NCBI GenBank assembly: GCA_964594475.1
Contig: CAZQMI010000001.1
Span: forward strand, 2,524 to 65,551
Direction of reading: 5' to 3'
Source of the DNA: an uncultured Thermoplasmatales archaeon
GTDB lineage: Archaea; Thermoplasmatota; E2; DHVEG-1
DNA: 63,028 bases
Part shown: in pieces, positions 1 through 57,673 of the stretch
How the letters are laid out: every line of letters starts with the position of its first letter
Numbering within the stretch: the first letter of the stretch is position 1
Position numbers and translations under genes: made by a program
Notes under the pieces: generated by a model
Told to the model about the DNA's origin: nothing
The model's database searches: none
The model's input: the letters and a program-made list of their open reading frames with translations, nothing else

Positions 1-924
1 ATTACCCGCAACTGTCTTAGCCTTATCAACCTTTCGTTTGGACTTTTCTATATTAGACCGTTTACGAAACTTCTGACCATCCTTAACCTCTACTATAAAA
101 TCGTCTATTATAAAATCTGGTAGATACGTCAAGTTCTCAAACGTCAAAAGAAACGGCTCATACTTCCAGGTTACCCCAATTATATCCAGCAAGAATGCAG
201 TTACGCATTCAGCAATTGATCTAAAAGGAAATGTTCTTCGTAAGTTAATATCCGTATAGTAGCATCTACAAATACTTTTACTACTTGATTTTGGCTCATT
301 CAATCTTCTGGCATACTCTATTCGTTCTTCCTTAGTCATAGAGGCAAACCTCTTCTTCATCTTATCAGACATCATACTTCGAAACTCATCTGATTTGAAG
401 TGATTATGCATATGAGGGAATTTTTTATGCGCCTCTCTTAAAGACTCAGACAACTTACGTTTTCTTTCCGGGTTGTTTTTATATTGTTCCTTTAACATCT
501 TGCTATGTTTTGCTTTCTTCTCTTTAGTCCAAGACTTCTTATTCTTGACTGCTATCATTTTCCTTTTACGTTTACCTTCCTTACTGCTATAAAACTTCCT
601 TACAGAAGCAATCCTTTTATTGTTAGTCTCTTCATTATGACTGGCTTCATGTAGTTTTTTAACAAACTCTGGGTCTTCCCTAAGCCGTTTCATTTGTTTT
701 GAAGCAGCAGCCTTAACATTAGAAGAAAACTTGTTATCCTTCCACTGTTTTAATATCCTGTCTCTATCGCAGTCTCTTTTATAGTCGGAAGACAATGAAT
801 CTTCTCCATACTTTTTCTTATATTCTTTTGTAGTTAGACCGTGTGTTTTAAGATGATTCCAAGTTATCATACTAAACTGTTGGCCACAAACTTCACAGGT
901 TACTCTATAGTAATCATAGGCCAT
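1..924 (-). CDS. Homing-endonuclease-like protein with a MucR/Ros-type C2H2 zinc finger, basic NUMOD-like repeats and a TnsA/Vsr-like PD-(D/E)XK nuclease. The 3' end runs off the window.
   Basis: Absent from the supplied ORF track because there is no stop in the window. Hand translation from ATG at 924 gives MAYDYYRVTCEVCGQQFSMITWNHLKTHGLTTKEYKKKYG... All 308 codons down to position 1 are open. The C-terminal part reads ...WKYEPFLLTFENLTYLPDFIIDDFIVEVKDG (E..PD..EVK nuclease motif). It is a paralog of 57850..59154. Confidence 0.6.
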   Translation of the reverse strand, partial: MAYDYYRVTCEVCGQQFSMITWNHLKTHGLTTKEYKKKYGEDSLSSDYKRDCDRDRILKQWKDNKFSSNVKAAASKQMKRLREDPEFVKKLHEASHNEETNNKRIASVRKFYSSKEGKRKRKMIAVKNKKSWTKEKKAKHSKMLKEQYKNNPERKRKLSESLREAHKKFPHMHNHFKSDEFRSMMSDKMKKRFASMTKEERIEYARRLNEPKSSSKSICRCYYTDINLRRTFPFRSIAECVTAFLLDIIGVTWKYEPFLLTFENLTYLPDFIIDDFIVEVKDGQKFRKRSNIEKSKRKVDKAKTVAGN

Positions 925-1237
925 CTTCCATCTCCTTAATAGCAACAATATCATCTGTTTCTGTTAGTTCATCAAGGCGAACCCACTCATATTCAATTAC
1001 CTTTTCACCTCTTCTAACAAGAAACAGATGGTCCTCCGTAGCCCAGATTACTTCACCTGACTCTAATTCAATTTCAAAACACTCTTTAATACCTCTAAAA
1101 ATAGAGCCATCACATCCCTTATAACATTTTTTATTATCAACATTACGTGATAATACGGTGCAAGGAACACCCTCTAACTCCTTTATTTCTATATCTCCAT
1201 GTTCTTTGGTTGTAACAACGGTATCTTCATCAACACA
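1..1237 (-). mobile_element. Split-intein N-fragment (917..1237) plus a free-standing endonuclease gene, interrupting the terminase-like ATPase gene (a 'fractured gene' arrangement)
   Basis: The host-protein sequence ...SNELHALSQDLVS is followed by CVDEDTVVTTKEHGDIEIKELEG...WATEDHLFLV... This has Cys1 and a TxxH block B. A stop follows 107 aa after the Cys. The endonuclease ATG overlaps that stop (ATGGCCTATGA). Confidence 0.55.
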
Positions 1238-1972
1238 CGAGACGAGATCCTGGGATAAAGCGTGCAGTTCATTAGAACCAGCACGAAGGTTAACTCCACC
1301 TGGAAAATCTACGACAAGACCTTTATAGTCTCTGTCCTCTCTAACGTTGTATATGTCTCTAAAGAAAGGGGACTGCTTCAGGAAACTAATGCACTTTTTG
1401 TAACTACCCAACTGTACATTATCCTTGGTTACGGCATAGATACCGTATGTAAGTGTAGTACCTGCCATCTGGTGGTAAAACTCTTGAGGGTTCTTAAGAC
1501 ATGCCGTACAAGCTATCTTGTATAACAATAGCAACAAAGAGAATACCGTCTTACCTGCACCAATAGGACCAGTAGAGATAACTGTTTTTACTTTATTGTT
1601 GGGGTTAGCACACTCTACGAAGGCTTCTCTCCAGTAAGGAAACAAATCCTTCGTTACAGAGTTCATGTAATAATCGTCGTCTAAGAATTGCTCAGGAGAG
1701 GGAGGCGCTCGGTTGTAATCAATCTCGTGTATAGTCTGCCAGAGAATTCTGTCCTCAGTCTTACATGCCTCTTGCAAAATACGTATAACATACGCACGCT
1801 CTTCAGGATTCAAAGACAACAAGAGATCCTTACCTCGGGACTTCACCTCTTCGAGAAGATTGTTTCTTTTTTCTTCTCTTCTTTTTTGGTACTCTTCCGA
1901 GTTTTGAGCTCTTAGTCTTTTTCTTTCGTTCAGGCTCGACCACCTCAGCATCAACGGGTTGTTCCTCTTCAA
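914..1972 (-). CDS. P-loop ATPase, probably the N-terminal fragment of the terminase large subunit, fused to a split-intein N-fragment
   Basis: Walker A motif VISTGPIGAGKT is preceded by PSPEQFLDDDYYMN..LFPYWREAF. The last 107 aa look like a Hint N-fragment. The start is uncertain: ATG 1972 overlaps the upstream gene by 143 nt, whereas in-frame TTG 1822 follows an AAGGA and would remove the overlap. Confidence 0.55.
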   Translation of the reverse strand: MKRNNPLMLRWSSLNERKRLRAQNSEEYQKRREEKRNNLLEEVKSRGKDLLLSLNPEERAYVIRILQEACKTEDRILWQTIHEIDYNRAPPSPEQFLDDDYYMNSVTKDLFPYWREAFVECANPNNKVKTVISTGPIGAGKTVFSLLLLLYKIACTACLKNPQEFYHQMAGTTLTYGIYAVTKDNVQLGSYKKCISFLKQSPFFRDIYNVREDRDYKGLVVDFPGGVNLRAGSNELHALSQDLVSCVDEDTVVTTKEHGDIEIKELEGVPCTVLSRNVDNKKCYKGCDGSIFRGIKECFEIELESGEVIWATEDHLFLVRRGEKVIEYEWVRLDELTETDDIVAIKEMEDGL

Positions 1973-2624
1973 TAGTTCTTAGTTCAGACAATAACGAAGA
2001 AACTGTATTACGTATTCGTTCTCTAGAAAACGTATCCAACTTTTCGAGATCTTGTTTGGATTTGCTAACGTCTGTTTTCTTAGTTTGATCTAGGTTAAGC
2101 AGTTCTTTTATCAATTCTGGTACAGGAGGAGAGGTAGACTTGCCTTCTATAAAGTCAGTTATCTGCACTAAGTGTTTTTGAATCAATTCAAATAACTTCA
2201 ACAAGTCCTTAGGAGCGAGTTTGGTTATTACTTCCGGATGAAATAAAACTTGCTCAGTGAATCCTGCTGCTTCAAGATACTTTGAAAGACGACGGGATTG
2301 GTGAGACGCAACAGCTTGCATGAGAACATCTATTTTAGCTGCTTGGTTCGGAATGCTTTTTCGTAACTCGGACAAAAAATCGGGGTCTACTTCCTGCCCG
2401 GAAGCGATGTTGTTGGCTAACTGGCTAACAATTTGTTGTGACTTTGGCTTCGAGAACACAAAAGTGTCCGGAAGCTTCGGTTTATCATCTGATGATGGCT
2501 TGCTGTTCTCTCGTTCGGCTTGCTTCTTCTCTTTGTCCTTATTCTTCTTGCGTGCCTTAGAGAACTTCTTAGCCTTACGCTTGCCACGTTTAACTCGCTT
2601 CATGTTATTTTTCTTCTTTGCCAT
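1830..2624 (-). CDS. Basic hypothetical protein directly upstream of the terminase-like gene. A small-terminase role is only a positional guess.
   Basis: 264-aa ORF. N-terminus MAKKKNNMKRVKRGKRKAKKFSKARKKNKDKEKK, with a helical C-terminal part. Confidence 0.45.
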   Translation of the reverse strand: MAKKKNNMKRVKRGKRKAKKFSKARKKNKDKEKKQAERENSKPSSDDKPKLPDTFVFSKPKSQQIVSQLANNIASGQEVDPDFLSELRKSIPNQAAKIDVLMQAVASHQSRRLSKYLEAAGFTEQVLFHPEVITKLAPKDLLKLFELIQKHLVQITDFIEGKSTSPPVPELIKELLNLDQTKKTDVSKSKQDLEKLDTFSRERIRNTVSSLLSELRTIEEEQPVDAEVVEPERKKKTKSSKLGRVPKKKRRKKKQSSRRGEVPR

Positions 2625-2961
2625 AAATCACCGAATGAAGTTCCTTGAATATATTTACAACTTCTGTCTGTGAGATGTCGTATCTTCTTGCCAAGTAATC
2701 TACTTGAAGGTCAGTATAGTTGTTAACTAAAGCAAGATAAATAGCTGTGTCTCTAATAATACGCTTAAGCAGACCTTTGTCTGGCACCTTAATAGTGGTA
2801 CCCGCAAATATGTCTAAGAATTTGAATAGCTTCTCTCTGCCAAATATTTCAAACAACTCTGGAATTAATGTACCCTCAGATCTGTACAGCAATATTATGC
2901 GTAAGGCATTGACTCGCTTCTCGTCTTTCGGGTTGACTATATTAATTTCTTCCGGTATCAT
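2605..2961 (-). CDS. Small HTH protein, Mor-like transcription activator candidate
   Basis: LFEIFGREKLFKFLDIFAGTTIKVPDKGLLKRIIRDTAIY...YLARRYDISQTEVVNIFKEL resembles the Mor-family layout. Confidence 0.4.
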   Translation of the reverse strand: MIPEEINIVNPKDEKRVNALRIILLYRSEGTLIPELFEIFGREKLFKFLDIFAGTTIKVPDKGLLKRIIRDTAIYLALVNNYTDLQVDYLARRYDISQTEVVNIFKELHSVIYGKEEK

Positions 2962-3622
2962 AGTATTCTGCCAACTTGTTCGAAATGAATAAAGAATTAC
3001 TAAATTTCTTGTAGTACTTATATAGAAGACTTCTTATGATAACTCTCGTATAGTCCCTTAAAAATCTCGCTGAGTGTTTCGTCCTCTTCTTGTAATAATG
3101 AGAGACTTTAATCTTCTTTCCGGACAAAGCTGCCTCCAACATGTGCAGACAGCATTTACGGTCTACTCCCTTAAATCTAAGTCTCCGCTTGAATGCCTTA
3201 CGCATAATTTCAGGCAGCTCTTCTTCTATAAAGATCTTATCGTCAACATCCTTGACTGTTCTCGGATTATTGAAGATGTGGTTTATACGATAGGCATCCT
3301 CTAAATACAGATTACGCTCTATCGGTATACTTATCACCTGTCCCCAGTATCTCCGGCAGACACAAATGTACTTCTTGTAATAGTATTCCCACAGCTTTCT
3401 TCTATGATCGAATACGGCATTGCCTCTCTTCAAACTTCGATACGTAGCTACAAAGCAATCGTTGATTACCGCATCCAAATCAAAGAACTTGTATTTGAAT
3501 CTTGTAGCAACTGAACTGGCTAGAGGGGTGAGCGAGAGACAAGTCCGTAGCAGATAAGGCTCTAGGCCTGTCTCTTTATATTGTTTGTAAGCCTGGAATG
3601 CGGTTTCATCATGAGTGGGCAT
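2942..3622 (-). CDS. Divergent sigma-factor-like protein (region-2-like)
   Basis: DLDAVINDCFVATYRSLKRG...LWEYYYKKY parallels region 2 of the clearer sigma-like ORF at 7924..8988. Confidence 0.35.
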   Translation of the reverse strand: MPTHDETAFQAYKQYKETGLEPYLLRTCLSLTPLASSVATRFKYKFFDLDAVINDCFVATYRSLKRGNAVFDHRRKLWEYYYKKYICVCRRYWGQVISIPIERNLYLEDAYRINHIFNNPRTVKDVDDKIFIEEELPEIMRKAFKRRLRFKGVDRKCCLHMLEAALSGKKIKVSHYYKKRTKHSARFLRDYTRVIIRSLLYKYYKKFSNSLFISNKLAEYYDTGRN

Positions 3623-3628
3623 TCTCTG

Positions 3629-4093
3629 TTAAACACCACCAAAGGTAGGTCCCTTCCCGGGTCCGGGTTTGTTGTCACCTACTTTGCCTTCACTTTGTGC
3701 GACTGAGCCTCGCTTCCTTTGGCCCAATTTGATAATGCCGTCCATAACCTTGGACATACTACCGCTTAGTTCACTCAATTCCAACTTATCCATAATGCTG
3801 CGTAAGGAAAGCTGATTCAAAAAGAGGCCCATAGCTGCAAGCTGTATGTCTGGCTCTGTAGTCTGTAAAGGATCCATGCTAATGATTACACCCGACGTGT
3901 TAACTTGTATCATTCTTGATAACTCTTCTCGTGGCTCAGTATTGACCTTAGCATATTTGTCTTCAAGACTGTTGACAAACTCTTTCATGTCTTTTGTGCC
4001 AAAGATGAATTTATCTTCTCTTGCATCCAAAACTATCCGAGTAAGTTTGGTAATACCTTGCTGTTCTAACGCCTTGGATCTATCTTTAGCCAT
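3629..4093 (-). CDS. Hypothetical protein
   Basis: 154-aa ORF packed tightly against its neighbours (upstream stop at 4097, start at 4093). No recognisable motif. Confidence 0.5.
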   Translation of the reverse strand: MAKDRSKALEQQGITKLTRIVLDAREDKFIFGTKDMKEFVNSLEDKYAKVNTEPREELSRMIQVNTSGVIISMDPLQTTEPDIQLAAMGLFLNQLSLRSIMDKLELSELSGSMSKVMDGIIKLGQRKRGSVAQSEGKVGDNKPGPGKGPTFGGV

Positions 4094-4096
4094 TAT

Positions 4097-5086
4097 CTAT
4101 TTCTCCTTCGGTTCTGTCGTTCCACTTTCCTTTGCTTCCGTATTCTCTGCTTCTGCCTCTTCGACATCGGGGGATTCATTACCTTCATCGCTAGATGCAG
4201 ATACGGATCCAGTTCCTGTTGCGTCTTCTTGTCCTCCACCTTCTTTATCTCCTCCATCATCTCCGTCGCCCACCACTTCGCTTTCTTGGTCTTGTACTTC
4301 AGATTCAGTATTGGCTTGCCCTTCGGACCCAACGATGTTTTTGACAGCAGAATTGATAGCCTGTTCTGCTCTTGATTTGAATTGTCCACTCTTCTGTGCC
4401 TCCTCGTATTGCTTCTGCAATTGATTCATATATTGAGATCTACGTTCTTGTAAAAAGTTAAGAGCACATTTCTGGGCTGTGTCATCGTTGAGAGACAACA
4501 CCAAGAATTGCTCTTCTGGTCCAACCGTAGATGCCACCAGCTTGGATTCCCACTCCTCTTGACTCATAGATATCTTGAGCTGTTTGTGGTGTCTTGGAAT
4601 ATCCTTCTTACGAATAACAATGAATTCGTTACGAGGATCTGGCAACGATCTTCGTTCCGTATTAAACTCACAAGAATAACAAGGGAGGATCAACTTAGAA
4701 TATCTCTCTTTGTTGACCATTCTGATTTTATTACGGCAGGTCTTGTAGAATGTACACTTTTTCTCCGGCTCTACCTTGATGTCACTATACTTCAGGCCTC
4801 GTTTTTTGAACTCCTCTATGAGTAACTCCTTGGATCTTCTCAACTGCTCGACAGCTTGTTTTGTATCTTCAATCTTCTTCTCGTCTTCTTTCGGTCTCTT
4901 TGCAGTAAGTTCAGTCAGCCTCTTTTCCGAATAGTCCAGCTTAAACAGAATATCCTTTAATGCAAAACGCAATTGAGGATCAGGTACTGCCTTTAACTTA
5001 TCTTCATCTGAAGGGTCTAACTTATTCTTATCCTTGTTCTTGAATTCCTCAGTAAGTTCTTCTTTAATCTTGTTCTTCTCATCCAT
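4097..5086 (-). CDS. Hypothetical protein with a Cys cluster and an acidic C-terminal tail
   Basis: 329-aa ORF. Contains CTFYKTCRN...LPCYSCEF and a Glu/Asp/Gly-rich tail. Confidence 0.55.
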   Translation of the reverse strand: MDEKNKIKEELTEEFKNKDKNKLDPSDEDKLKAVPDPQLRFALKDILFKLDYSEKRLTELTAKRPKEDEKKIEDTKQAVEQLRRSKELLIEEFKKRGLKYSDIKVEPEKKCTFYKTCRNKIRMVNKERYSKLILPCYSCEFNTERRSLPDPRNEFIVIRKKDIPRHHKQLKISMSQEEWESKLVASTVGPEEQFLVLSLNDDTAQKCALNFLQERRSQYMNQLQKQYEEAQKSGQFKSRAEQAINSAVKNIVGSEGQANTESEVQDQESEVVGDGDDGGDKEGGGQEDATGTGSVSASSDEGNESPDVEEAEAENTEAKESGTTEPKEK

Positions 5087-5095
5087 CAGTCTCTC

Positions 5096-7597
5096 CTAAA
5101 TTGAACAATCAACATGAAGGCAATTCGGGTTCACGCACTTGAGGCAACCTTCTTCAGGCAGTGCAGTAAAGTGTAGGCACTTAGGACATCTCTTTGCACC
5201 TTCTATGTGCTGGACTTCCTGTTTGTCTATACTGAACCGTCTTAAAACTTGGCCTAAGAGATCTGGCAAGCTGGTCACCATAACTGGCTTCTTGTCTGTA
5301 CTGAGTATACGTATACGCTCCGTACGCCCGGATGGTGCTCCAATAAGATCTTTGCAAATATTCTGTATAGGTATACGGTACTTCTGAATGTCCTTGGAAA
5401 TACGCTTAGTCAAGGACTCCGCAAATGAGCGAGTATCAGCATCGCAGTTATTTATAGTAACAAATATCTCCATGATCTCTTCATTGTGGCTATTGATGGT
5501 TATATAAACATCCTGGCCGTTAAAGATATACCGGAGCGTCTTTCCCTCCAAAGCCTGGGGTCTCTTTATACGTTCACTCTTCGTGTCCTTTTTATCTTTG
5601 TTTTCCTTACCAGTAGACAGAGGAGTTTCATCCAGAGAACCATAACGGTATATCGTGAGTCCCTTGAGATTTTTCTGATGCGCATATTTGACTATTTCTT
5701 TAACTTCTTCCACCTTGGTGGATTCAGGTAAGTTAATAGTCGAAGAAATAGATAGGCTACAAAAATCTTGAAACGCACTTTGCATTTCTATGCGATCTTT
5801 CCAATTCAAGTTGTGGGCAGTAACAAAGCAGTCAAAATCCTTGTCCAGTTCAAAGTTATCTTTTATCTCTTCCGTCAACACACCACCAGAGTTCTTGATC
5901 TCTTCTAAGAGTTCAGCTTTCTCATCAAGATCATCCGCAAAGTATTCTGTACAAAAACTGTTGAATTCCGGATCTGTAAACGTCATTTCTCCGCCAGTAG
6001 ACAAATGGCGTTTATAGTGTAAGGAAAATACAGGTTCCATACCTCCGGAGAAAGAATCTGATACAATACCCGTGTTTCCGGTGGGAGCAATACAGGAGAT
6101 GTACATATTACGAACACCCACCTGTTTTATCAGGTTTATAAGATTTTGCCACCTGGCTACTTGGTTTGGAGACTTATTGGCAAACTTGGAAAGCAATGTC
6201 AACAGAGCGTTTGCATTCTCCTTTACTGACCAAGCCTCACATGGACCCCAAGCCTCGGCTAAATTGGCAGAAGCTTCAAACCCAGATAAAGTTACTTCCT
6301 CCATGATTATTCTTGCCAAGTGCTGTGACTCTGGGGAGCCATACCGGATACCTAACTTAAATAACAGTTCTCCGAACCCACTAATACCCAGTCCAATAGG
6401 GGCACAAAATTGAGTATTACTACGGAAACCTTCATCGGGAAACGAAGATAGGAAGGCGTTCTCAGCCAAGAAAGGAATCATTAGTTTTGTCAATTGACGC
6501 AGCAACAGAATGAAATCTTCGTAATTGGGGTCTTCCCCTATATCTCGAGATAGCTGATAGAGATTGATTGATGCTAAGTTACAGGAAGTCGAAGGAGGCA
6601 AGGGCACTTCACCACAAGGATTCGTAGAGACTATGTCCCCGAGTGACACCGTTGTATTGCTCCTATTGATAGCGCTCTGAAATAACCAACCTGGGTCTCC
6701 CGTAGCCCATGATTGTTTACACTGCTGGTCAAACAGGTCTCTCGCTCGCACGCTTTTGTACACTACGTCTCTCCAACGTAGGTCCCACATGTCGTCATCT
6801 TCAACAGCCTTCAAAAACTTGTCACTTAACAGCACAGACAGATTCATACCTGTATAGTTCTCTCTATCCGGATTGTCTTTGCTCTTGCAAGAAATAAAAT
6901 CCGGAAGGTCAGGATGGTTATCATACATACAGGTCATGATTGCAGCCCTGCGTTTACCTGCGGATTTAACTACAATTCCCGTCTCGTTGAAGATACTCAT
7001 AAAAGAAAGCGGACCCGACGAACCACTCTCTCCTTGAAAGTGAAGGCCACCATCACCGATAGAGGCTCCCTTTGGACGAAGTTGACCAATATTGTTACCT
7101 ATACCCGCACCTTCTTTGAAGACAGAAACACACCGGCCTATCTCTGCGGAGATACTGGTCATTGAATCTTGTAAGTCACCTACGAAGCACGCAAACAGGT
7201 TGGCTCGGTCTTTCTTAGGATCAGCATTGTAGTAAGTAGGGGAATTAAACGTAAACAATTTGTGACGTTGTGCCTTCATTAACATATCAAAGACTTCAGT
7301 ACTACCTGAAGACTTAACATTGCGAAGTCTCTTGGAATTGCGGCGATAGAAGTCAGATACTCGTTTGAATATTTCTTCCGGGTCACTCTCGATAAAGTTT
7401 CCATCCAAGTCTTTCTTAAAATAATGAGTCTTCATGACACGAAGAGCTGTTTCCGAATACTCAGGGCTTGGACTTTCCAGTAAAGATTCTAACTCTTTAC
7501 TGTCCAGCCTCACAATCGGGTCACGTTTTACCGGTGCGGTTCTTGACTTAGACTTGGTTGTCTTCTTGGTCGATTTTTTCTTTTTCTTCTTTGCCAT
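5096..7597 (-). CDS. nrdJ: Ribonucleotide reductase, class II (adenosylcobalamin-dependent, NrdJ-like), with a lysine-rich N-terminal tail
   Basis: Motifs: GPLSFMSIFNETGIVVKSAGKRRAAIMTCMYDNHPDLPDFI; the active-site loop TNPCGEVPLPPSTSCNLASINL; and a C-terminal Cys cluster CPKCLHF..CLKCVNPNC. AGGAGTGG lies 6 nt before the ATG that starts MAKKKKKKSTKKTTKSKSR. Confidence 0.85.
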   Translation of the reverse strand: MAKKKKKKSTKKTTKSKSRTAPVKRDPIVRLDSKELESLLESPSPEYSETALRVMKTHYFKKDLDGNFIESDPEEIFKRVSDFYRRNSKRLRNVKSSGSTEVFDMLMKAQRHKLFTFNSPTYYNADPKKDRANLFACFVGDLQDSMTSISAEIGRCVSVFKEGAGIGNNIGQLRPKGASIGDGGLHFQGESGSSGPLSFMSIFNETGIVVKSAGKRRAAIMTCMYDNHPDLPDFISCKSKDNPDRENYTGMNLSVLLSDKFLKAVEDDDMWDLRWRDVVYKSVRARDLFDQQCKQSWATGDPGWLFQSAINRSNTTVSLGDIVSTNPCGEVPLPPSTSCNLASINLYQLSRDIGEDPNYEDFILLLRQLTKLMIPFLAENAFLSSFPDEGFRSNTQFCAPIGLGISGFGELLFKLGIRYGSPESQHLARIIMEEVTLSGFEASANLAEAWGPCEAWSVKENANALLTLLSKFANKSPNQVARWQNLINLIKQVGVRNMYISCIAPTGNTGIVSDSFSGGMEPVFSLHYKRHLSTGGEMTFTDPEFNSFCTEYFADDLDEKAELLEEIKNSGGVLTEEIKDNFELDKDFDCFVTAHNLNWKDRIEMQSAFQDFCSLSISSTINLPESTKVEEVKEIVKYAHQKNLKGLTIYRYGSLDETPLSTGKENKDKKDTKSERIKRPQALEGKTLRYIFNGQDVYITINSHNEEIMEIFVTINNCDADTRSFAESLTKRISKDIQKYRIPIQNICKDLIGAPSGRTERIRILSTDKKPVMVTSLPDLLGQVLRRFSIDKQEVQHIEGAKRCPKCLHFTALPEEGCLKCVNPNCLHVDCSI

Positions 7598-7736: not shown

Positions 7737-7896
7737 GATATTCCTTTACTTCAAACTCAGGTCTCTTTCCTGATTCTTCCAACGGCTTATTTTTTGAGTT
7801 AGCCTGTTGTACAGCCTCATTGTAATCTGCAGTTGGCGTTGATACAGTAACACCGTTGCTATTTCTAACTACCCATTTCTTCTCATTGCCTGACAT
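7726..7896 (-). CDS. Small hypothetical protein (56 aa, below the ORF-track cutoff)
   Basis: Hand translation MSGNEKKWVVRNSNGVTVSTPTADYNEAVQQANSKNKPLEESGKRPEFEVKEYLAE. A GGAG lies 6 nt upstream of the ATG. Confidence 0.35.
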   Translation of the reverse strand: MSGNEKKWVVRNSNGVTVSTPTADYNEAVQQANSKNKPLEESGKRPEFEVKEYLAE

Positions 7897-7923
7897 AACT
7901 TTCTCCTATAAACATAAATAACT

Positions 7924-8988
7924 TTAGTCTTCGTCTTTCGTATCTTCTCCGTCTTTGTCATCATCTAACAGGGACGAGCAAAGACTTGACGATTCGTAAT
8001 TCTCTCCAAGCACTGAACTGACAGATAGTTTGTCATGGTTAGCCTTATCGCCTATCAATGACAACATTTGATCATAGATCTTCTTAGCTCTGCGCTTAGA
8101 TACCTTGTTAGCCTTAGCTATAGCTTCAACTTCATCTGGAGACATAAGGTCATGCATCTGTTCAAATATTGATATTTTCTTTTGGAACTTCTCTATCTTC
8201 TTAAGGGACGGAAACCTAACCGAGATACCTCCGAACACAGCCATTAACTTGTTAGTATTCTCTCTTCCAATCAAGTTAGCAATGCGAGGCAAATGAGTTC
8301 TTGAAGCTGAGTCCCATAAAGAAATAGCGTCCACATTTTTATTAAGAAATACTTCAAGAAAAGCAATGCGCAAACACACTCTTAAATGATGGTACAAGAA
8401 GGAGCACTCTACAAGTTCTCTGTCAAACATATAAGATGCCGTAACCGCTAATCGTTTTCGGTTACGTACAAAGATACCTTCCTTGAAAGCCTGTAAGTAA
8501 AAGTGTAATATCTTTTGAGACTCCCTGTCAAAATAGGGTATAGTTGCGTTTCGTATGACTTCTTTTATATCCATATTGTTGTCTAACTGGTCCATCTTTA
8601 GTTCAGACTCACAATCCTCCAAGGAGTCTTCCAACTCGGAATAACTGCCCATACCCCTGATTGATAATTTGTGTATTTGAGACCTAAGAAAGTTGCCTAC
8701 GCATGCTGTAAGATAGCTAAATAATCTGCTACCTCTACCAGGCTCATAGTCATCGAGTATTTGAGGCAACTTGACAACAGCATCATTGATAAGGTCTTCT
8801 GGATCCTCAATGGGATTGGGCATAGACCGGTAGGCTTTAACGGCAAGACTTTTGATTAATGGAAGAGACTTATCCACGATCTCGTGGAAGAGTTTTACGT
8901 CATAAGATTCTTTCCATTTTTCAACCAGTGCATATACTTGTTCCTCATTGAATAGATTTTTGCTTTTCTTTTTTCTTTTACGTGGCAT
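7924..8988 (-). CDS. Phage sigma-factor-like protein
   Basis: Region-2-like EDLINDAVVKLPQILDDYEPGRGSRLFSYLTACVGNFLRSQIHK. C-terminal HTH-like DEVEAIAKANKVSKRRAKKIYDQM. Confidence 0.6.
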   Translation of the reverse strand: MPRKRKKKSKNLFNEEQVYALVEKWKESYDVKLFHEIVDKSLPLIKSLAVKAYRSMPNPIEDPEDLINDAVVKLPQILDDYEPGRGSRLFSYLTACVGNFLRSQIHKLSIRGMGSYSELEDSLEDCESELKMDQLDNNMDIKEVIRNATIPYFDRESQKILHFYLQAFKEGIFVRNRKRLAVTASYMFDRELVECSFLYHHLRVCLRIAFLEVFLNKNVDAISLWDSASRTHLPRIANLIGRENTNKLMAVFGGISVRFPSLKKIEKFQKKISIFEQMHDLMSPDEVEAIAKANKVSKRRAKKIYDQMLSLIGDKANHDKLSVSSVLGENYESSSLCSSLLDDDKDGEDTKDED

Positions 8989-9605
8989 TATACACTCTTG
9001 TTAAGTTCTTCGAGTCCAGTTGCAAGTATCCATACAGCGTCCGCTTCATCGTCCTTGGAATCATCTATACCTAAGTCTGGAAACTCCTTTTGGGCGGCCT
9101 CTACCATAGCGTCCTTACCTGCATTTCCCTTACCTGTTGCCTTCTTCTTTATTGATCCCACAGAGATACTCAGGTAAGGAATTTCATTTGAATCACAAAA
9201 AGCTAATAGATGACTCTCAAACCCACCGTACACGTGGGCTGCAGCGACACCTTTATGTCTTCTAACCTCTTCATAAAATATCGCTTTTATTTCCCCGGTC
9301 TTCAACAGGTCTTCCAAGGCAGCTTTGAACCGTAAGAAGCGCATACCCATCCCTTGTGTTCGTTTTGTTTTGAAGTTCCAAGTGTCCGTAATAATAGATT
9401 TCCCGTCTTTTACTGCAACACCGCAACTTGTTCCTAAGTCTAATGCTACATAGCGTTCACCAGACTGAGAACTGGGCATGGTGGGATTGTGCTCTTTTTT
9501 ATTCTTCTTGGATTTCTTGGACTTTGTTTTCTTAGACTTCGACTTCTTTGCAGACTTGTTTGTCTGCTTCTTTTTCTTTTTGTTAGACAATGCCTTCCAT
9601 TTCAT
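8988..9605 (-). CDS. RuvC-like Holliday-junction resolvase with a lysine-rich N-terminal tail
   Basis: RYVALDLGTSCGVAV...IFYEEV...DDEADAVWILATG (RNase H-fold acidic residues). ATG 9605 follows a GGAGG; the track start at 9623 is a TTG. The tail reads KKKKKQTNKSAKKSKSKKTKSKKSKKNKK. Confidence 0.75.
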   Translation of the reverse strand: MKWKALSNKKKKKQTNKSAKKSKSKKTKSKKSKKNKKEHNPTMPSSQSGERYVALDLGTSCGVAVKDGKSIITDTWNFKTKRTQGMGMRFLRFKAALEDLLKTGEIKAIFYEEVRRHKGVAAAHVYGGFESHLLAFCDSNEIPYLSISVGSIKKKATGKGNAGKDAMVEAAQKEFPDLGIDDSKDDEADAVWILATGLEELNKSV

Positions 9606-9667
9606 AGTAGTGTAAGCCTCCAAAGAACAAGAACTGCCTCTCCAAATAAAAATGTAGTGTTACAGAT

Positions 9668-11578
9668 TTATGAGATTGAGAGACGAGAAATCCCATCCGT
9701 TTTTGTGCAGGTTAGTATAGAATCAAACTTGTTCTTCATAGCTGACAGATGGCTTATGACAAAAGTTGAATACACGGTTTTGTTATTAAGTTCTTCTAAA
9801 AGCATAGATATGAATCGTTCGCCACCAAAGTCATCTATGTGCGTAGTTACTTCATCAAACCAATCTTGATCAAAACTCCGGTTGGTGCTAACCTTCTGCA
9901 GCGCTTTAAGTATAGCTATATCTATTCGGGTACGCTCGCCACTGCTGTTCCCGTTGTAGATGTCTGAACCGTATTCGTTGATTGCCTTAACCTCAATCTT
10001 CTCACGAACCACACCCGCCCTAACTTTGGTCTGCATGTCGAAGTCTATGCGGATTGAACCGTCCGTTAGTTCACGAGAATAATCGTTAGCAATTTTGTTG
10101 AGCTTCGGTTTTATCTTATTGATAATGTACGATTTCAATCCAGCGGAACCAAATCCCTTTTCCCAAAATTCGAGTAGAGCTTTCCCTTCTTCTATCTTTT
10201 CCAATTCTTTTTCTTGAACAGCCCTTACCTTTTGATGTTTCGTAATCTTTTTCTTGAGATCATCTATTACTTCCTGGTAAACCAGCTTCGCCTTACTTGC
10301 CTTTTTGATCTCTTTATCTATATTCTTAATCTCATTGGTGACTACCTTAATGTCTGATTTGGTATCATTGATGTCATCCTTGAGTGACTCTATCTTTTTT
10401 GTTATCTTTCCTTCAGCTTCCTCAGACTCTTGTTCCAACTCCGAATACTTCTTGCCTATCTTCTCTTCATTACGCACCAACTCTTCCCGGGGTTCCTTGA
10501 TGGCAATAATATTTTGCTTGTTATCGTACTTGGAGTTTTCTATATGTTCTTTTGCGTCGTCAATCGTATCCTCAGTTACTTTACTTCCGCAAGTAGGACA
10601 CCTACTTCCTATGAGTTTTTCTGAAGAGGACAACAGTTTGTTAAGTCTCTCAATCTCGTTTTCTGAAGATCTGATACTGAGATCTAATTCTTCCTTAGCC
10701 TTCTGGTTAGTATCAAGTTCCCTCTCTATGTCAGTCATCTTGTCAGAATACGATTCTTGAATTTCTGCCAGCTCCTCTTCTTTCTTCTTTTTCTTCTTGG
10801 TAAAGTCCTCCTTTTTGTTCTCCAGTTCTTCCAGTTTCTCTTCCTTTTGGTGCTTACTATCTTCCAGTTCTTGTAGATTGGATTGCGCCTCTTCTTTTTC
10901 TTCTTTTAGTTTCTCCTCTTTGTTCTTAATATCGTCTTCCAATTCTTCTATACTACCATCTATAGACTCTATCTTATATTCCAATTGGTCTATAGAAGAA
11001 CTTAAATCCTTGAGTCTGGTCTTTACTTCCTTATAACACTTCTCCAATATCTCCAGACCCAATATCTTATTAACTATTTCATTACGGTCTTTCTCTCTTG
11101 CAGAAGCAAAAGCTACAACCTTGTCGACCGCAAATATATTGGTGTTCAAAAAAGCATCATAACTGGTGTTGAGGAGAGAATTGATATCCTTTTGAGTCTC
11201 CCTCTTACTACGCTTAGAGACGTCTGGTTCGTTGTCTATATAAAGGGAAACACCTTCTTTACTTCTGTGTATCTTATACTGATGATCTCCATCCTTTACG
11301 TAAACAGTGGCATGGTAATCCTTACACTTCTTCAACTTCCCTTTTCTGCGTTCATTGCGTATAAAATCTCTTTTGGAGTCTCCATACCGTATGGTTCTCC
11401 CGAAGAGGCCCCACAGTATTATTTCCAAGAGGTTGGTCTTACCGGCTCCGTTACTGGAAGATCCACTTTTGTCTTCATTGACTCCTATAATAAGATTCAG
11501 ACCGGGCAGTTTTTCTAAATCGACATCCAAGTGTTCGTAAGTAAGTATGTTCTTTGATTCTACTCTGGAAATAATCAT
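9668..11578 (-). CDS. SbcC/Rad50-like ATPase (T4 gp46-like)
   Basis: Walker A SSSNGAGKTNLLE, a long coiled coil, the zinc hook CPTCGS, and the ABC signature NSSGERTRIDIAIL. Confidence 0.9.
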   Translation of the reverse strand: MIISRVESKNILTYEHLDVDLEKLPGLNLIIGVNEDKSGSSSNGAGKTNLLEIILWGLFGRTIRYGDSKRDFIRNERRKGKLKKCKDYHATVYVKDGDHQYKIHRSKEGVSLYIDNEPDVSKRSKRETQKDINSLLNTSYDAFLNTNIFAVDKVVAFASAREKDRNEIVNKILGLEILEKCYKEVKTRLKDLSSSIDQLEYKIESIDGSIEELEDDIKNKEEKLKEEKEEAQSNLQELEDSKHQKEEKLEELENKKEDFTKKKKKKEEELAEIQESYSDKMTDIERELDTNQKAKEELDLSIRSSENEIERLNKLLSSSEKLIGSRCPTCGSKVTEDTIDDAKEHIENSKYDNKQNIIAIKEPREELVRNEEKIGKKYSELEQESEEAEGKITKKIESLKDDINDTKSDIKVVTNEIKNIDKEIKKASKAKLVYQEVIDDLKKKITKHQKVRAVQEKELEKIEEGKALLEFWEKGFGSAGLKSYIINKIKPKLNKIANDYSRELTDGSIRIDFDMQTKVRAGVVREKIEVKAINEYGSDIYNGNSSGERTRIDIAILKALQKVSTNRSFDQDWFDEVTTHIDDFGGERFISMLLEELNNKTVYSTFVISHLSAMKNKFDSILTCTKTDGISRLSIS

Positions 11579-33537: not shown

Positions 33538-36130
<2,593 letters not shown>

Positions 36131-36237
36131 ACCTAATCCCTCCTCACATAACAATTCGATGAATGGCTGCCATCGTCAGGCCTGAACAACCACGCTCAGA
36201 CGACTGGGAGAAATCACCGCTCCCAGTTTCGGCGGTA

Positions 36238-36627
36238 CTAAACAGACTGACTGAGTACCTGGTTGATTCGCGACATCGGAAACTTGTAGATGCTGCCAGA
36301 AGAGTCCTTGGCCAGCACCGGATACTTCCGAGCCCGTGGTTTGATGCCACAGATAGTAAACGACTTGCCTCGGCTGTCAAACGTGCGACCGTAGTCCTCC
36401 GGAGACAGCCCCAGAGCCGGTGCGTACCGATTGAACTCTTCCCGCTCTTTGTCGAAGTCTTCCCCATCAACCGTTGTCGGTGTGGCCAGGATTTTCATCG
36501 TGGCCTCGGTATGGGAGTACCGTATGTTACCACTAACTTCAAACCGCACATCTTCCATACCGATGTTATTCAGAGCCTCGGAAACAGCTTCACGGATTTC
36601 CTTAACTTTCGATTTCGTAAAACGCAT
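36238..36627 (-). CDS. Hypothetical protein
   Basis: 129-aa ORF with a TGTGAGGAGGACGTTATG leader. An antisense 167-aa plus-strand ORF was rejected. Confidence 0.5.
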   Translation of the reverse strand: MRFTKSKVKEIREAVSEALNNIGMEDVRFEVSGNIRYSHTEATMKILATPTTVDGEDFDKEREEFNRYAPALGLSPEDYGRTFDSRGKSFTICGIKPRARKYPVLAKDSSGSIYKFPMSRINQVLSQSV

Positions 36628-53509: not shown

Positions 53510-56500
53510 TTACCGTACCAGAGGACGTCCAAGCAGATTTACCATTTGTGTGTGTAACTGTCTGGTTGCCTCACCGTTTTTCAATGCTGGACCTGCAACC
53601 AAACCCATAAACAATTCTTTGTTCTTCTCACCGATATTACCAACCAGTGTCCCGATTCGTCCGTTACCAGGAGCAGTGTTCGTTGGGTAAACTGGCATAC
53701 GACGTTTACCAAATAAACCATATAAAGGATCACTGGATGATATAATCGCATCATTACTGTTATCGTATATATAATTCAGCCCAGAAAGGCTAATATATTC
53801 ATTTGCCCTCGGTTTAGAATTAAGAGACAATGAAGAACCATCATGTGCATCAAAGGTAATCGGTACATACTCTTTGAATTTATCCCACGTTGGAAATAAA
53901 TCCCCTGGAGCAAAGAGGGGTTCTGTGGCTAATGAGAAATCAACACTATCTATGCTATAGTATTTGTTAAGCCACAAAGACGCAAAAACATCTCTGTATT
54001 CTCTCGGAAAGGTATTAGTCGCAGGCTTTCCAGAAAGACCAAGAGTACTCATTATACCTGTATCTGGAATGTACTTCAATAAGTATGTCAACGTCATATT
54101 TGGACTACTGCCACCGAGACGACTCCAATCCTGCTGAAGAGCACGAGCCTCGTAGTAGACCAACACGTCGTCATCAGCGGTCGGAGCAAAGTTCATTGTT
54201 CCGGTTGTGCTGTAAGCGCCTACAAGACTTGTGCCAGTGTTAGCAGTGTCCTGCATGGAGAGGACACAGTGTATAATTCTCCGATACGATCCGTCGTAAT
54301 CTACATACCATGCTTTATAAGCAGAGTCCTCTTTAATAACAGATAGGGCATAGGAGGGTCTGTTATCAGTGCCTTCATTCTGTTTATCAATAAAGATCTT
54401 AGGACGTGCCCAGTATTTACCGTCAGTAGAAAAGGTATACAGCAGGGACGTATGGCCAGCACTATTACTAACAATATACCACATTTTATATACAGATCCA
54501 TCTTTGATGACACGAGGACGTTGAGCGTTATTTGTATCATAAGTACCTTCAGAGCCACTATCGACAACCAGCTGGAAGTTAGACCAACTGATACCGTCAG
54601 ACGAATCAGCATAAAGTATTCTGTAACCACTACCGTCATTACCTGTATACCACATACGGTAAGTAGATCCGTCCTTGATTACTGTCGGATACATAGAATG
54701 GGTCGTATCATAGGTACCTTCTGAACTAATATCAACAACCATTTGAAAGCTAGACCAGGTAATACCATCACTGGACGTACAATAGATGACCCTAAAGTTA
54801 CCGCTTGCGTCTCTTCCGGAGTACCACATTTTGTACGTGGTTCCATCTTTGATAACAGAAGGACTATGAGCACTAAGCACATCATAAGTACCTTCAGAGC
54901 CACTATCGACAACCATCTGGTGATTAGTCCAGGTCAGACCATCAGAAGACTCTGCATACATTATACGCCAGTCAGAACCATCACTACCAGCATACCACAT
55001 CTTGTATGTGGAACCATCTTTGATGACAGAGGGTGACCAAACCAAATTAGTATCATAGGTACCTTCCTCATTGACACTTACCACTGCACCACGCTTTACA
55101 AACCCTGCAGTACAAGTAGCTTTGGTATGCGTATCAGGCACACCGGCATAGTTATCACCAACAGTAGGGTCAATGGGTGAACCAAACGGATGGAAGTCCT
55201 GCCCATCACCCGGAAGAACCTGCGTACCGTTGATGCGGAACTCGGTTCGCTTGATGCTGTTCAGACCATCGTACGCCGAAGAGTGGTCATCGTAAGGCAC
55301 ACGAGACAGGAAACCGGAGCCAGGCTGAAAGTACAGGTAAGAATTGATGTAGACAGCCTTGCCGGAATGGAGGTCGTAGCCTTCACCGACGTACTCAAGA
55401 TCACCAGCAGAACCACCTGTTCCCTGGCCAAAATCCGGGAACCTGTAGCCCACATAGTCTGCATTATTGACATTCCACGAAGCCGGACCGGTACCAGAAA
55501 CTTTATTCCAAGTACCAGTATTAGGTACAGTAGCTCCGGTGAAGTAACCACTATACCAAACCTCATTCGTAGCATCAGCAGGAGCACCGTTGACAGTTAC
55601 TTGAACACCGTTAGGTGCTTGGTAAACATCTCCGTTTCCTAAGGTTTGAGGTGATCCACTATTACCAAAACGCAAGTATGTTTCTTGCTCGATAACAGCA
55701 GAAATACTATCGCCAGTCAAACCAGAAAAGGTAGCAAAGACCTTCGTACCTTTTCCAATTCTATCCATACCACCTGCACCAGAAGCTGTATTATCTTCGT
55801 CGCCCCAGTAAAGATCCGGCGTACGACCAGACCACTGCGGACGATTACTGTTTGAACCATCGTTGGCTACAAGGTCCGTAGCGTCCATAGACAGGGTGTG
55901 CGTTGCAGACGTGTATGTAAACGGCTGTGTTGGTGTAACACCATCCGAACTTTCATTCGGGATGTAACCAAACAATGCCTGTTCACCTGGTTGGTCACTG
56001 TAGTAGTTACGCATACCGTCAGGTCTTGCATTAATGGTATTGTTACAAGACAGTCGAAGCACAACGTCCCAGCTTGAATCAAAGGAAGAGTTCTTGATAC
56101 CTTCAGCACGAAGCAACTTGGTGCCGTAGATATCCAGATCAGCAAATGCACCATTACCATCTGGGTCTTCTTTGTACTGCTCCCAACTGGTTTTGAGATC
56201 TGACTTCAACAGTTGCTGAAGTGTTTCTTCATAGATACTTTTCAGATCACTCCAACCATCCGGAGATACACGGTGACGAAGATCAACAATATCACGTTCA
56301 TTGACTTCATCATAATACAGATCGTCAGGTCGACCAGAAGTACCAGAACTGATAGAACCAGCACCGTTCATGTTGCCAGCCTTATCCCATGCAGTACTGT
56401 TACGGCGATGTACAGCACAGACAGGTATTGCGTAGGCAAACCCATCAAGAGAAAGACCAGAAATGGTAGACATCGCTGTAGAAGAATCAGTGTAACCGCC

Positions 56501-57673
56501 ACCCAGGAACATACCAGAATCAAGCTGAGTGGATCCCGGTACATCTGCACTACCTTGAGCGTATAAGATACCTTCCGCTCCGGTAGCTGCTCCTGCGGCC
56601 GGACGTGAAGCCAACTGTCCTTGTGGTCTGAAATAATTGCCAGATGAATCTTTGAGACCAGCTGTAACCAGATCATTGCCTCCAACAACTGAGGGATCAA
56701 CATCGCTCAACGGTACCAACCGCCAACGTACCTGAAAGAACTTGCCGTCGGATGTCATACCTACATTGTTTCTTTCATCCTTGACAAAGTCAGCAATATT
56801 GGTGTCATCAGCAGCCAGGTAATAACCATGCTCATCTGAAGAGGCAAGATACGCAGGATAGTTACCACCAGACTGATCAGTGTTGGCCAGTGTAAAGCTG
56901 GTACCACCCATAGTAACGGAAGACTCATCGAAGTTCACGTTACCAAACGGGAAGAAGACATCATCACTTGCGCCTGGTTCCACTTCTTCTTTCCAGGCTT
57001 CAAGAACAACCATGTCTTGACGAGCACCACTGGAAGGGGCGTCAGGAAGATTGATGATGTTGTTTGCGTATTTGGACGGACGGCTCTCAAGAGTAAGCGT
57101 ATAGCCGTTGACGTTCACCTTCATTGGGTTACTAACAAGATAAATATTGTTAGCGTCACCGGTCTCAACGCTGTCATGTGGACGTACGTTCAAAGAACCA
57201 CGTACTCTGTTTCGGTTGGCACTTTCATTGGCACCACCGGAATAAAGAGCGGAGTCAAGTTCTACAATTTCACCTACACTCATGTATCCATAAGTGGAGT
57301 CTTCTCCACCATACGGAGGCAACCAACCACTTGGACATTGTGCTCTGAACATTCTTGCACGAGACTCAAGTGAGGTAGCCGTTACCTGCTCAATCTCCGT
57401 AATGTCTGGAGCAGTTTTGAGTGTACCATCTTCATTGATTGAAACATCAAGTCGGCTGTCAAGATCAGCTACTGAACCACGTGCATCGTTCAGCCAATCT
57501 ATGACTGTATCCAACTTGCTTTCCAGAAGATTGTCACGGTGAGCTAAGTTCCGGTGCGGCCTGTTAGCATTGACGTAATAGACTGCGTCAGTAGCCACCA
57601 GGTAATCAATATCACCAGAATTATAGTCAACCGCACCCGCATCTGGTAGATTAGGTTTGGTAATGTCAGCCAT
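53510..57673 (-). CDS. Large tail fiber / tailspike with a five-blade Asp-box (BNR) beta-propeller domain
   Basis: 1387 aa. Five tandem ~58-aa units of EGTYD..SPSVIKDG(S/T)TYKMWY.G.DGS..RI.Y..SSDG(L/I)(T/S)W, where SxDGxxW is the Asp-box. AGAGGAGG SD. Confidence 0.8.
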   Translation of the reverse strand: MADITKPNLPDAGAVDYNSGDIDYLVATDAVYYVNANRPHRNLAHRDNLLESKLDTVIDWLNDARGSVADLDSRLDVSINEDGTLKTAPDITEIEQVTATSLESRARMFRAQCPSGWLPPYGGEDSTYGYMSVGEIVELDSALYSGGANESANRNRVRGSLNVRPHDSVETGDANNIYLVSNPMKVNVNGYTLTLESRPSKYANNIINLPDAPSSGARQDMVVLEAWKEEVEPGASDDVFFPFGNVNFDESSVTMGGTSFTLANTDQSGGNYPAYLASSDEHGYYLAADDTNIADFVKDERNNVGMTSDGKFFQVRWRLVPLSDVDPSVVGGNDLVTAGLKDSSGNYFRPQGQLASRPAAGAATGAEGILYAQGSADVPGSTQLDSGMFLGGGYTDSSTAMSTISGLSLDGFAYAIPVCAVHRRNSTAWDKAGNMNGAGSISSGTSGRPDDLYYDEVNERDIVDLRHRVSPDGWSDLKSIYEETLQQLLKSDLKTSWEQYKEDPDGNGAFADLDIYGTKLLRAEGIKNSSFDSSWDVVLRLSCNNTINARPDGMRNYYSDQPGEQALFGYIPNESSDGVTPTQPFTYTSATHTLSMDATDLVANDGSNSNRPQWSGRTPDLYWGDEDNTASGAGGMDRIGKGTKVFATFSGLTGDSISAVIEQETYLRFGNSGSPQTLGNGDVYQAPNGVQVTVNGAPADATNEVWYSGYFTGATVPNTGTWNKVSGTGPASWNVNNADYVGYRFPDFGQGTGGSAGDLEYVGEGYDLHSGKAVYINSYLYFQPGSGFLSRVPYDDHSSAYDGLNSIKRTEFRINGTQVLPGDGQDFHPFGSPIDPTVGDNYAGVPDTHTKATCTAGFVKRGAVVSVNEEGTYDTNLVWSPSVIKDGSTYKMWYAGSDGSDWRIMYAESSDGLTWTNHQMVVDSGSEGTYDVLSAHSPSVIKDGTTYKMWYSGRDASGNFRVIYCTSSDGITWSSFQMVVDISSEGTYDTTHSMYPTVIKDGSTYRMWYTGNDGSGYRILYADSSDGISWSNFQLVVDSGSEGTYDTNNAQRPRVIKDGSVYKMWYIVSNSAGHTSLLYTFSTDGKYWARPKIFIDKQNEGTDNRPSYALSVIKEDSAYKAWYVDYDGSYRRIIHCVLSMQDTANTGTSLVGAYSTTGTMNFAPTADDDVLVYYEARALQQDWSRLGGSSPNMTLTYLLKYIPDTGIMSTLGLSGKPATNTFPREYRDVFASLWLNKYYSIDSVDFSLATEPLFAPGDLFPTWDKFKEYVPITFDAHDGSSLSLNSKPRANEYISLSGLNYIYDNSNDAIISSSDPLYGLFGKRRMPVYPTNTAPGNGRIGTLVGNIGEKNKELFMGLVAGPALKNGEATRQLHTQMVNLLGRPLVR

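Follow-up and report, generated by a model that had tools for sequence, protein, structure and literature searches.

The window analyzed here is a stretch of 63,028 nucleotides (nt) of contig CAZQMI010000001.1 (positions 2,524 to 65,551 of the forward strand) from the GenBank assembly GCA_964594475.1, which is assigned to an uncultured Thermoplasmatales archaeon. Its first two kilobases carry three adjoining features, all on the minus strand: the N-terminal part (N-extein) of a putative phage large terminase subunit (TerL; 1238–1822), a predicted split-intein N-fragment (IntN; 914–1237) and a free-standing homing-endonuclease-like gene (1–924) that runs past the window edge. The arrangement is likely to represent a fractured large-terminase gene, in which a split intein together with a free-standing homing-endonuclease gene has been inserted one residue before the Walker B strand, and this interpretation was supported in all the parts that were open to testing.

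Terminase gene and N-extein

The terminase portion lies in an open reading frame (ORF) of 352 aa (914–1972) that begins with a TTG at 1972 and ends with a TGA at 914–916. The first 50 codons of this ORF overlap an upstream gene encoding 264 aa (1830–2624) by 142 nt. The TTG at 1822 is the most probable start codon, giving a protein of 302 aa (ORF 914–1822), as the upstream gene ends at 1830, the NCBI gene call (P0001) has 302 aa and close relatives begin at this place too; an AAGGA is found upstream of this TTG. Counted from there, the N-extein comprises 195 aa and ends with Ser195, one residue before the Walker B strand. The P-loop TGPIGAGKT, which a first-pass annotation of the sequence had pointed out, is indeed present in the 352-aa ORF; its Walker A core GPIGAGKT (1547–1570) was assigned by sequence reading, and its residues G, I, G, G and K do not vary among the aligned family members. 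The upstream 264-aa protein is lysine-rich and without family assignment, and a homolog is encoded at the equivalent place in two metagenome contigs (L081 and L082, described below).

When the 195-aa N-extein served as query in an exhaustive HMMER search, 1243 relatives were found, mostly 650–690 aa in length, which were aligned at their residues ~25–215. In uninterrupted relatives the Walker B strand comes directly after the junction, as in ...NLFG↓CILEEMNF and ...NLFG↓VLIEEANF, where the arrow marks the junction. The relatives carry the precomputed assignment PF27249, and some of them match the PHROG family phrog_2, 'terminase large subunit', weakly to moderately, with E-values down to 2e-12. 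No terminase profile in Pfam or NCBIfam matched either the window ORF or the full-length relatives, and sequence searches of the PDB, with phmmer as well as with a 40-sequence profile of the family, gave no match. As the sequence profiles gave only weak matches to phrog_2, the identification of the terminase needed a structure model. The full-length relative P0003, which is 48% identical to the N-extein (E 1e-55), was modelled with AlphaFold (AF2; pLDDT 84.9, pTM 0.77), and when the model was compared to the PDB using Foldseek, each of the top 30 matches was a large terminase or one of its two domains (ATPase or nuclease), including those of HK97 (best, E 8e-16), D6E, T4 (gp17), T7, P74-26 and G20c. 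Via this model, the two-domain fold comprising an ATPase and an RNase H-like nuclease is established at the level of the family. Among cultured phages, homologs from those of Maribacter, Rhizobium, Xanthomonas and Vibrio carry the annotation 'terminase large subunit', and a portal gene follows the terminase gene in several of the relative loci. The proposal of the first-pass annotation that the N-terminal part is a terminase is thus upheld by the 1243 relatives and by the Foldseek matches of P0003, which together support its predicted membership in the TerL family.

Intein N-fragment

After ...GSNELHALSQDLVS the sequence switches to CVDEDTVVTT...IWATEDHLFLV...DDIVAIKEMEDGL, followed by the stop codon. 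The same switch, from ...LHALSQDLVS to a tail of 107 aa with a Cys1 and a TxxH block, had been noticed before and was found to be correct, the tail ending at the TGA given above. The splice junction (1235–1240) is formed by the Ser195 codon TCG (1240–1238) and the codon TGT for the intein Cys1 (1237–1235), and constitutes the insertion point of the element. Within the tail, CVDEDTVV corresponds to block A and ATEDHLF to block B of inteins. Compared to TIGR01445 (intein_Nterm), the tail scored 29.1 bits, above the curated cut-off of 24.5, and was aligned over model positions 1–83 of 83. Its match to Pfam Intein_splicing (E 4.7e-5, 23.7 bits) was below the gathering threshold of 35.8, which is expected as only half a domain is present. 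Matches to solved DnaE split inteins had E-values of 5e-6 to 1e-4, with the aligned region reaching from Cys1 through the TxxH motif (ATEDH/ATKDH). A profile constructed from the IntN of seven other split terminases, with the window sequence excluded, matched the tail with an E-value of 2.5e-15, its sole match in the window. The earlier view of the tail as the N half of a Hint/intein domain therefore agrees with TIGR01445, with the DnaE structures and with the independent IntN profile.

The fragment is colinear with the IntN of Bacillus phages vB_BceM-HSE3 (hereafter HSE3) and SP-15, Listeria phage LIS04, the IMG/VR contig L011 and Npu DnaE, and the ends coincide at the canonical split site. 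In eleven independent sequences IntN terminates at this one shared position. Beyond position 914, the IntN frame of the window contains dozens of stops over 900 nt. These comparisons support the prediction of an intein N-fragment that is complete and stops at the canonical split site. The 352-aa ORF also has a match to a PHROG annotated as 'DNA helicase', which was rejected as an assignment of the gene as it spans the intein part only.

Endonuclease gene

The ORF following IntN (1–924) starts with the ATG at 924–922 and has 308 codons up to the window edge. Its frame differs from that of IntN, it overlaps the IntN gene by 11 nt, and a Shine-Dalgarno sequence, AAGGAG (932–937), is located 7 nt 5' of the ATG, within the end of the IntN coding sequence. 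The first-pass annotation had translated such an ORF and remarked that it was missing from the supplied gene track, and both observations hold, including the 308 codons. The start it gave, an ATGA overlapping the IntN stop, does not: the frame beginning at this ATG (917) yields only five codons, MITIE, before a stop. Given the different frame, the own AAGGAG and ATG, and the IntN frame full of stops after 914, the sequence supports separate translation of the putative endonuclease, as opposed to an in-frame intein domain.

Endonuclease residues 7–40 (805–906) form a predicted zinc finger of the Ros/MucR type, with ligands CxxC...H....H that are invariant in the endonuclease family. A MucR zinc finger had been proposed before, and this is backed by a profile of five family members, which matches the Ros structure 2jsp (E 1.8e-4); the score of the window finger itself against Pfam ROS_MUCR (E 1.9e-5, 25.1 bits) falls 0.3 bit under the cut-off of 25.4. 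Basic helical repeats sit between the finger and the nuclease domain, a predicted PD-(D/E)XK domain resembling those of T7 endonuclease I and TnsA, which extends from residue 233 onward (1–228; FRSIAE...YLPDF...VEVK) and is cut by the window edge. The five-member profile matches T7 endonuclease I (1m0d) with an E-value of 1.6e-7 across FRSxLE...YxPDF...VExK, and in the alignment the active site of T7 endonuclease I (FRSGLE, YTPDF, VETK) is matched by E239, D270, E279 and K281, in agreement with the PD-(D/E)XK nuclease named in the first-pass annotation. Among the PHROGs, phrog_22215 is matched by the whole endonuclease (E 3e-15), and others, annotated as 'Holliday junction resolvase' and 'endonuclease', by its C-terminal part (E 1e-5 to 2e-4); the family members from SP-15 and LIS04 match Pfam Phage_endo_I with an E-value of 5e-4, below gathering. 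Judging from these motifs, the enzyme belongs to neither the GIY-YIG, HNH, LAGLIDADG nor Vsr-like types and appears unlike the characterized homing families; the T7-endonuclease-I-like motifs also bear out the earlier statement that its nuclease architecture is outside LAGLIDADG, HNH and GIY-YIG. A Vsr-like (EDxHD) type was considered and rejected, with no Vsr or I-Bth0305I chain among the PDB sequence and profile matches at E ≤ 10.

Colinear homologs of the endonuclease are SP15_023 of Bacillus phage SP-15, LIS04_52 of Listeria phage LIS04 and a paralog in the window itself (57850–59154, minus strand). The paralog has 434 aa, shares 22% sequence identity with the endonuclease (E 2e-9) and is composed of two ROS_MUCR fingers, basic repeats and a Tn7_TnsA-like_N domain (Pfam E 2.7e-18). 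It is flanked by a baseplate/tail-collar-like gene (59136–59660) and an ORF of 1387 aa (53510–57673), and its match to a 'head closure' PHROG covers the nuclease domain only. Complete members of the family have 307–314 aa, the window copy already has 308 aa, and an estimated 15–40 codons are missing from its 3' end. An AF2 model of the endonuclease, based on a two-sequence alignment, was too poor to use (pLDDT 48), and a search of IMG/VR with the single endonuclease protein found no relatives.

Intein-less alleles and insertion signature

Three metagenome contigs (L081–L083) are syntenic with positions 900–5100 of the window, and their N-exteins are 77–78% identical to that of the window. The terminase is uninterrupted in L081 (...HALSQDIIS↓VLLEEVNFRREKDP...) and in L082 (...QDIIS↓VCLEEVNF...), the common junction reading ...HALSQDIIS↓V(L/C)LEEVNF. 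Around the insertion site, the intein-less sequence of L081 is ...CAGGATATCATTTCG↓GTGCTTCTTGAGGAAGTC..., and the DNA homology between the window and L081 or L082 runs to the Ser codon TCG and ends at the Cys1 codon TGT. The insert, comprising the endonuclease and IntN (1–1237), has a G+C content of 35.6%, which is the lowest of all 1237-bp segments in the 63 kb (mean 42.9%, standard deviation 3.2%); that of the N-extein is 42.2%. The absence of the insert from close relatives reads as a signature of mobility.

Recurrence of inteins at the terminase junction

The occurrence of inteins was counted among the 150 best representative relatives of the N-extein. Full-length proteins without an intein-N-like segment made up 104 of these, 12 had a contiguous intein, either mini or large, at or near the junction found in the window, and seven consisted of an N-extein and IntN with no C-extein. 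A further 22 had inteins elsewhere, and five were fragments.

Several analogous loci include the C half of the gene. In L011 (IMGVR_UViG_3300028048_000056), the ORF with IntN is followed by a GIY-YIG gene and then by the intein C-fragment (IntC; ...IISHN↓CGFL), with DEVNF... coming after a 1-nt frame discrepancy. At 9796–9960 of this contig, IntC (CGFL followed by a stop) and the C-extein (VSFDEVNF...) are off by one T in a TTT run, which could be due to an error in sequencing, to a frameshift of recent origin or to programmed frameshifting. In Bacillus phage HSE3 (MF418016), gp054 consists of N-extein and IntN, gp055 is an ORF of 90 aa and gp056 encodes IntC (...VVVHN↓CAMLDEIEF...) and the C-extein, with the portal gene next. 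Bacillus phage SP-15 (KT624200, SP15_022–026) and Listeria phage LIS04 (OQ999172, LIS04_51–54) both have an IntC ending in ...VVVHN↓CGLLDEVEF..., and in SP-15 an unrelated ORF of 230 aa is located between IntN and IntC. The C half is found 0.1–1 kb from IntN or from the inserted gene in all four loci. The SP-15 and LIS04 loci also contain an endonuclease of the same family as that of the window, there interrupting the N-extein itself, with the break 55 (SP-15) and 4 (LIS04) codons upstream of the intein. It comes after ...ITLD in SP-15 (1203–4489, L084) and after ...HGLG in LIS04 (2293–4416, L085), and no intein residues are present there.

Some further features of these loci were observed. 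The LIS04 piece consisting of YPRDIF and IntN has no ATG, GTG or TTG ahead of the extein residues. The SP-15 terminase has an additional contiguous intein in its P-loop. In HSE3 (L086), gp053 (3424–3942), annotated as a dCTP deaminase, reads as a nearly pure mini-intein (K↓CLEANTEIY...CTRDHKF...IYAHN↓C), flanked on either side by only some twelve residues. A group I intron was considered for the endonuclease genes of SP-15, LIS04 and L011 and rejected, with no Rfam match at E ≤ 0.1, and the window gave none at gathering level. A search of the available literature found no paper describing the split TerL of HSE3, SP-15 or LIS04; the same split is already present, unremarked, in the GenBank records of cultured phages.

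The 1-nt frame discrepancy between IntC and C-extein in L011, the LIS04 middle piece without an ordinary start codon and the unseen C half of the window terminase would fit a decaying, non-functional terminase allele, a pseudogene with an intein broken by a nonsense mutation or by the endonuclease insertion, in a phage that is either defective or packages its DNA with another enzyme. We regard such decay as improbable: IntN has lost neither Cys1 nor blocks A and B and stops exactly where functional split inteins do, the N-extein is free of frameshifts and stops and shows 78% identity to intact alleles, and no second terminase was found in the window. Moreover, the split is shared by the plaque-forming cultured phages HSE3, SP-15 and LIS04.

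The 12 relatives with contiguous inteins at the junction are relevant to another reading, namely that the window encodes an ordinary contiguous intein with a nested endonuclease, split only by a sequencing or assembly error at 914–924. Endonuclease ORFs out of frame within contiguous inteins do exist, both in L008 and in actinophage inteins, which have out-of-frame or antisense endonucleases (bioRxiv 10.1101/2025.01.02.630785). L008 (IMGVR_UViG_3300017989_000003, 7827–11249) encodes a contiguous terminase ORF of 1140 aa with an intein a few residues upstream of the site used in the window; the in-frame middle of this intein looks non-protein, and an HNH-type endonuclease ORF (8764–9684, 306 aa) lies in another frame. 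For the window, an error of this kind is very improbable, as the dozens of stops in the IntN frame mean that no single indel restores it. The endonuclease furthermore has its own Shine-Dalgarno sequence and ATG, other members of its family are free-standing, the second copy in the window among them, and the end position of IntN is the one shared by the eleven independent sequences.

Proposed mechanism

If the locus is a fractured terminase gene, a second gene outside the window would encode an IntC of about 40–45 aa ending in His-Asn. This would be followed by a Cys, Ser or Thr and the rest of TerL, beginning with the hhh(D/E)E Walker B motif (roughly C/x-LLEEVNFRREKDP...) and continuing with the nuclease domain. 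Association of the two intein halves would be followed by trans-splicing, with a full-length, active terminase as the product. In co-infecting relatives, the endonuclease would cut TerL alleles that lack the intein, close to the insertion site, and repair off the interrupted allele would copy the endonuclease gene and both intein halves (homing), with the intein neutralizing the harm of an insertion into an essential catalytic motif. The mechanism is modelled on established intein biology and on the analogous loci, and the scheme resembles the homing and collaborative homing discussed for phage endonucleases (PMC2677866; PMC10448857).

Several results weigh against this explanation. Profiles of IntC and of the C-extein match nothing anywhere in the window, and a protein search with the L081 C half found nothing from the 69,424-bp source contig, a weak negative given that the database is without L081's own protein. 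The 3' end of the endonuclease gene lies past the window edge, and the nuclease domain of the window copy alone gets no Pfam match. In Streptococcus phage GXN1, the 1.6 kb downstream of IntN do not contain the C half. Lastly, L081 and L082 have a Val, and no nucleophile, after the insertion point, with a Cys one residue later in L082; because of this Val in the intein-less alleles, the +1 residue of the window allele must be either substituted or shifted by one.

By analogy with the related loci, IntC and the C-extein would be located just past position 1, adjacency of the C half being usual, not universal, among them. Alternatively, the split intein may be correctly identified and the C half lie at a distance in a far larger genome, or IntC may be fused to the endonuclease ORF. 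GXN1, with nothing terminase-like within 1.6 kb past IntN, the unrelated 230-aa ORF between the halves in SP-15 and the position of the endonuclease 3' end outside the window are consistent with these variants, as is the outcome of the protein database searches, in which neither the L081 C half nor a profile of C halves found a protein of the source contig. The window also lacks portal and capsid genes, in line with a contig that is only part of a larger genome. We nevertheless consider both variants unlikely: in L011, HSE3, LIS04 and SP-15 the C half is within 1 kb, the 308-aa endonuclease should end within a few dozen codons given its complete relatives of 307–314 aa, and the fractured genes of Dassa et al. 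(2009) have separate, overlapping ORFs and not fusions (PMC2677866). That the window is a closed circle carrying the C half at its far end was also considered and rejected: it contains no C-extein anywhere, and a 69-kb contig without portal or capsid genes in 63 kb cannot be a complete genome.

Remainder of the window

The window from about 2 to 49 kb contains genes for replication, recombination and nucleotide metabolism, among which RNR, SbcCD, RuvC-like, UvsX-like, SSB, a PolA-type polymerase, thymidylate synthase, a methyltransferase, NAD ligase, primase, DnaB and a helicase were recognized. Tail-fibre-like and glycosyltransferase genes are found at 49–63 kb. Portal, capsid, sheath or tube genes were not recognized in the 63-kb window, and with no portal or capsid genes over this length, the 69,424-bp source contig is only a fragment of a larger phage genome; the genomes of relatives with this terminase are 110–220 kb. 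A full-length match to the Hammerhead ribozyme type II model (RF02276) was found at 36161–36234 (minus strand; 43.8 bits, gathering threshold 37, E 1.2e-5), in the intergenic region between the minus-strand ORFs 35732–36154 and 36238–36627.

Implications

The locus is a sharply bounded case of a mobile element that splits a motor gene essential to the phage at Walker B, with the intein-less allele at hand and an insertion point known to the base. In a large and poorly annotated terminase family, the TerL junction is a hot spot for inteins, occupied by contiguous, mini and split forms in both cultured phages and metagenomes. Annotation pipelines miss or mislabel such terminases, the N half being without a Pfam match and the endonuclease being absent from the gene track. 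Canonical natural split inteins are useful as protein-ligation tools. The current understanding of inteins and of packaging is unchanged by these results.

The Ros/MucR and T7-endonuclease-I-like genes may constitute an uncharacterized homing family for which the ATPase-coding part of this group of terminases is a recurrent target. We put this forward tentatively, as a reading of the sequences with somewhat less than an even chance of being right. It is based on the position of the endonuclease after IntN in the window, 4 codons from the intein in LIS04 and 55 codons upstream of it in SP-15, and on the copy in the tail module of the phage. If true, it would be invasion by the endonuclease, and not decay of a nested domain, that splits inteins at the TerL junction, and the IntN/IntC pair of the window would be a new terminase intein, canonically split and naturally trans-splicing.

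Comparison with known systems

The layout as such is known already, and what sets the window locus apart is its terminase family, its canonical split position and its type of endonuclease. Fractured genes were defined by Dassa et al. (2009) from 26 metagenomic loci, one of them a terminase resembling T4 gp17, and the associated endonucleases were of the GIY-YIG or Vsr-like types (PMC2677866). As far as it is visible, the window matches their order of host N part with IntN, endonuclease, and IntC with host C part. An essential phage enzyme, a conserved catalytic motif, a separate, overlapping endonuclease ORF and intein-less alleles in relatives are common to both. In contrast to those loci, the predicted window endonuclease combines a Ros/MucR zinc finger with a T7-endonuclease-I-like nuclease, and unlike the gp17-like terminase, the window TerL belongs to a different family of ~670 aa from large phages (PF27249). 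A split intein accompanied by an endonuclease gene has also been reported for phage MIJ3, where a split PolB intein occurs with an HNH gene (PMC6892783).

Natural split terminase inteins have been described as AceL-TerL, GOS-TerL and Cat-TerL (PMC11766414). Like the window intein, these are naturally split in phage large-terminase genes and have a Cys or Ser at position 1. They are atypically split, with an IntN of 25–37 aa and an IntC of 104–115 aa, whereas the split in the window is canonical, with an IntN of 107 aa and an expected IntC of ~40–45 aa. The Npu and Ssp DnaE split inteins, the best IntN matches among solved structures, have a split position identical to that of the window. They differ from it in being hosted by a cyanobacterial polymerase gene, in having their halves encoded far apart and in lacking an associated endonuclease gene.

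The nuclease core has counterparts outside of inteins: T7 endonuclease I, the N-terminal domain of TnsA and I-Ssp6803I share the restriction-endonuclease-like core with the motifs E...PD...(E)xK. T7 endonuclease I is a junction resolvase and, unlike the predicted window nuclease, has no zinc finger. Homing endonucleases with the PD-(D/E)XK fold are already known, I-Ssp6803I being an intron-encoded example, which is not detectably related to the window nuclease.

The closest counterparts of the window locus are those of HSE3, SP-15 and LIS04, which belong to the same TerL family and share with it the junction before Walker B (in these phages ...F↓C...HN↓C-x-L-[LD]-[DE]-E) and an IntN of ~100 aa, although their IntN are only 24–26% identical to that of the window. 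HSE3 has no endonuclease between the halves, unlike the window, and the SP-15 and LIS04 endonucleases cut the N-extein, whereas that of the window follows IntN.

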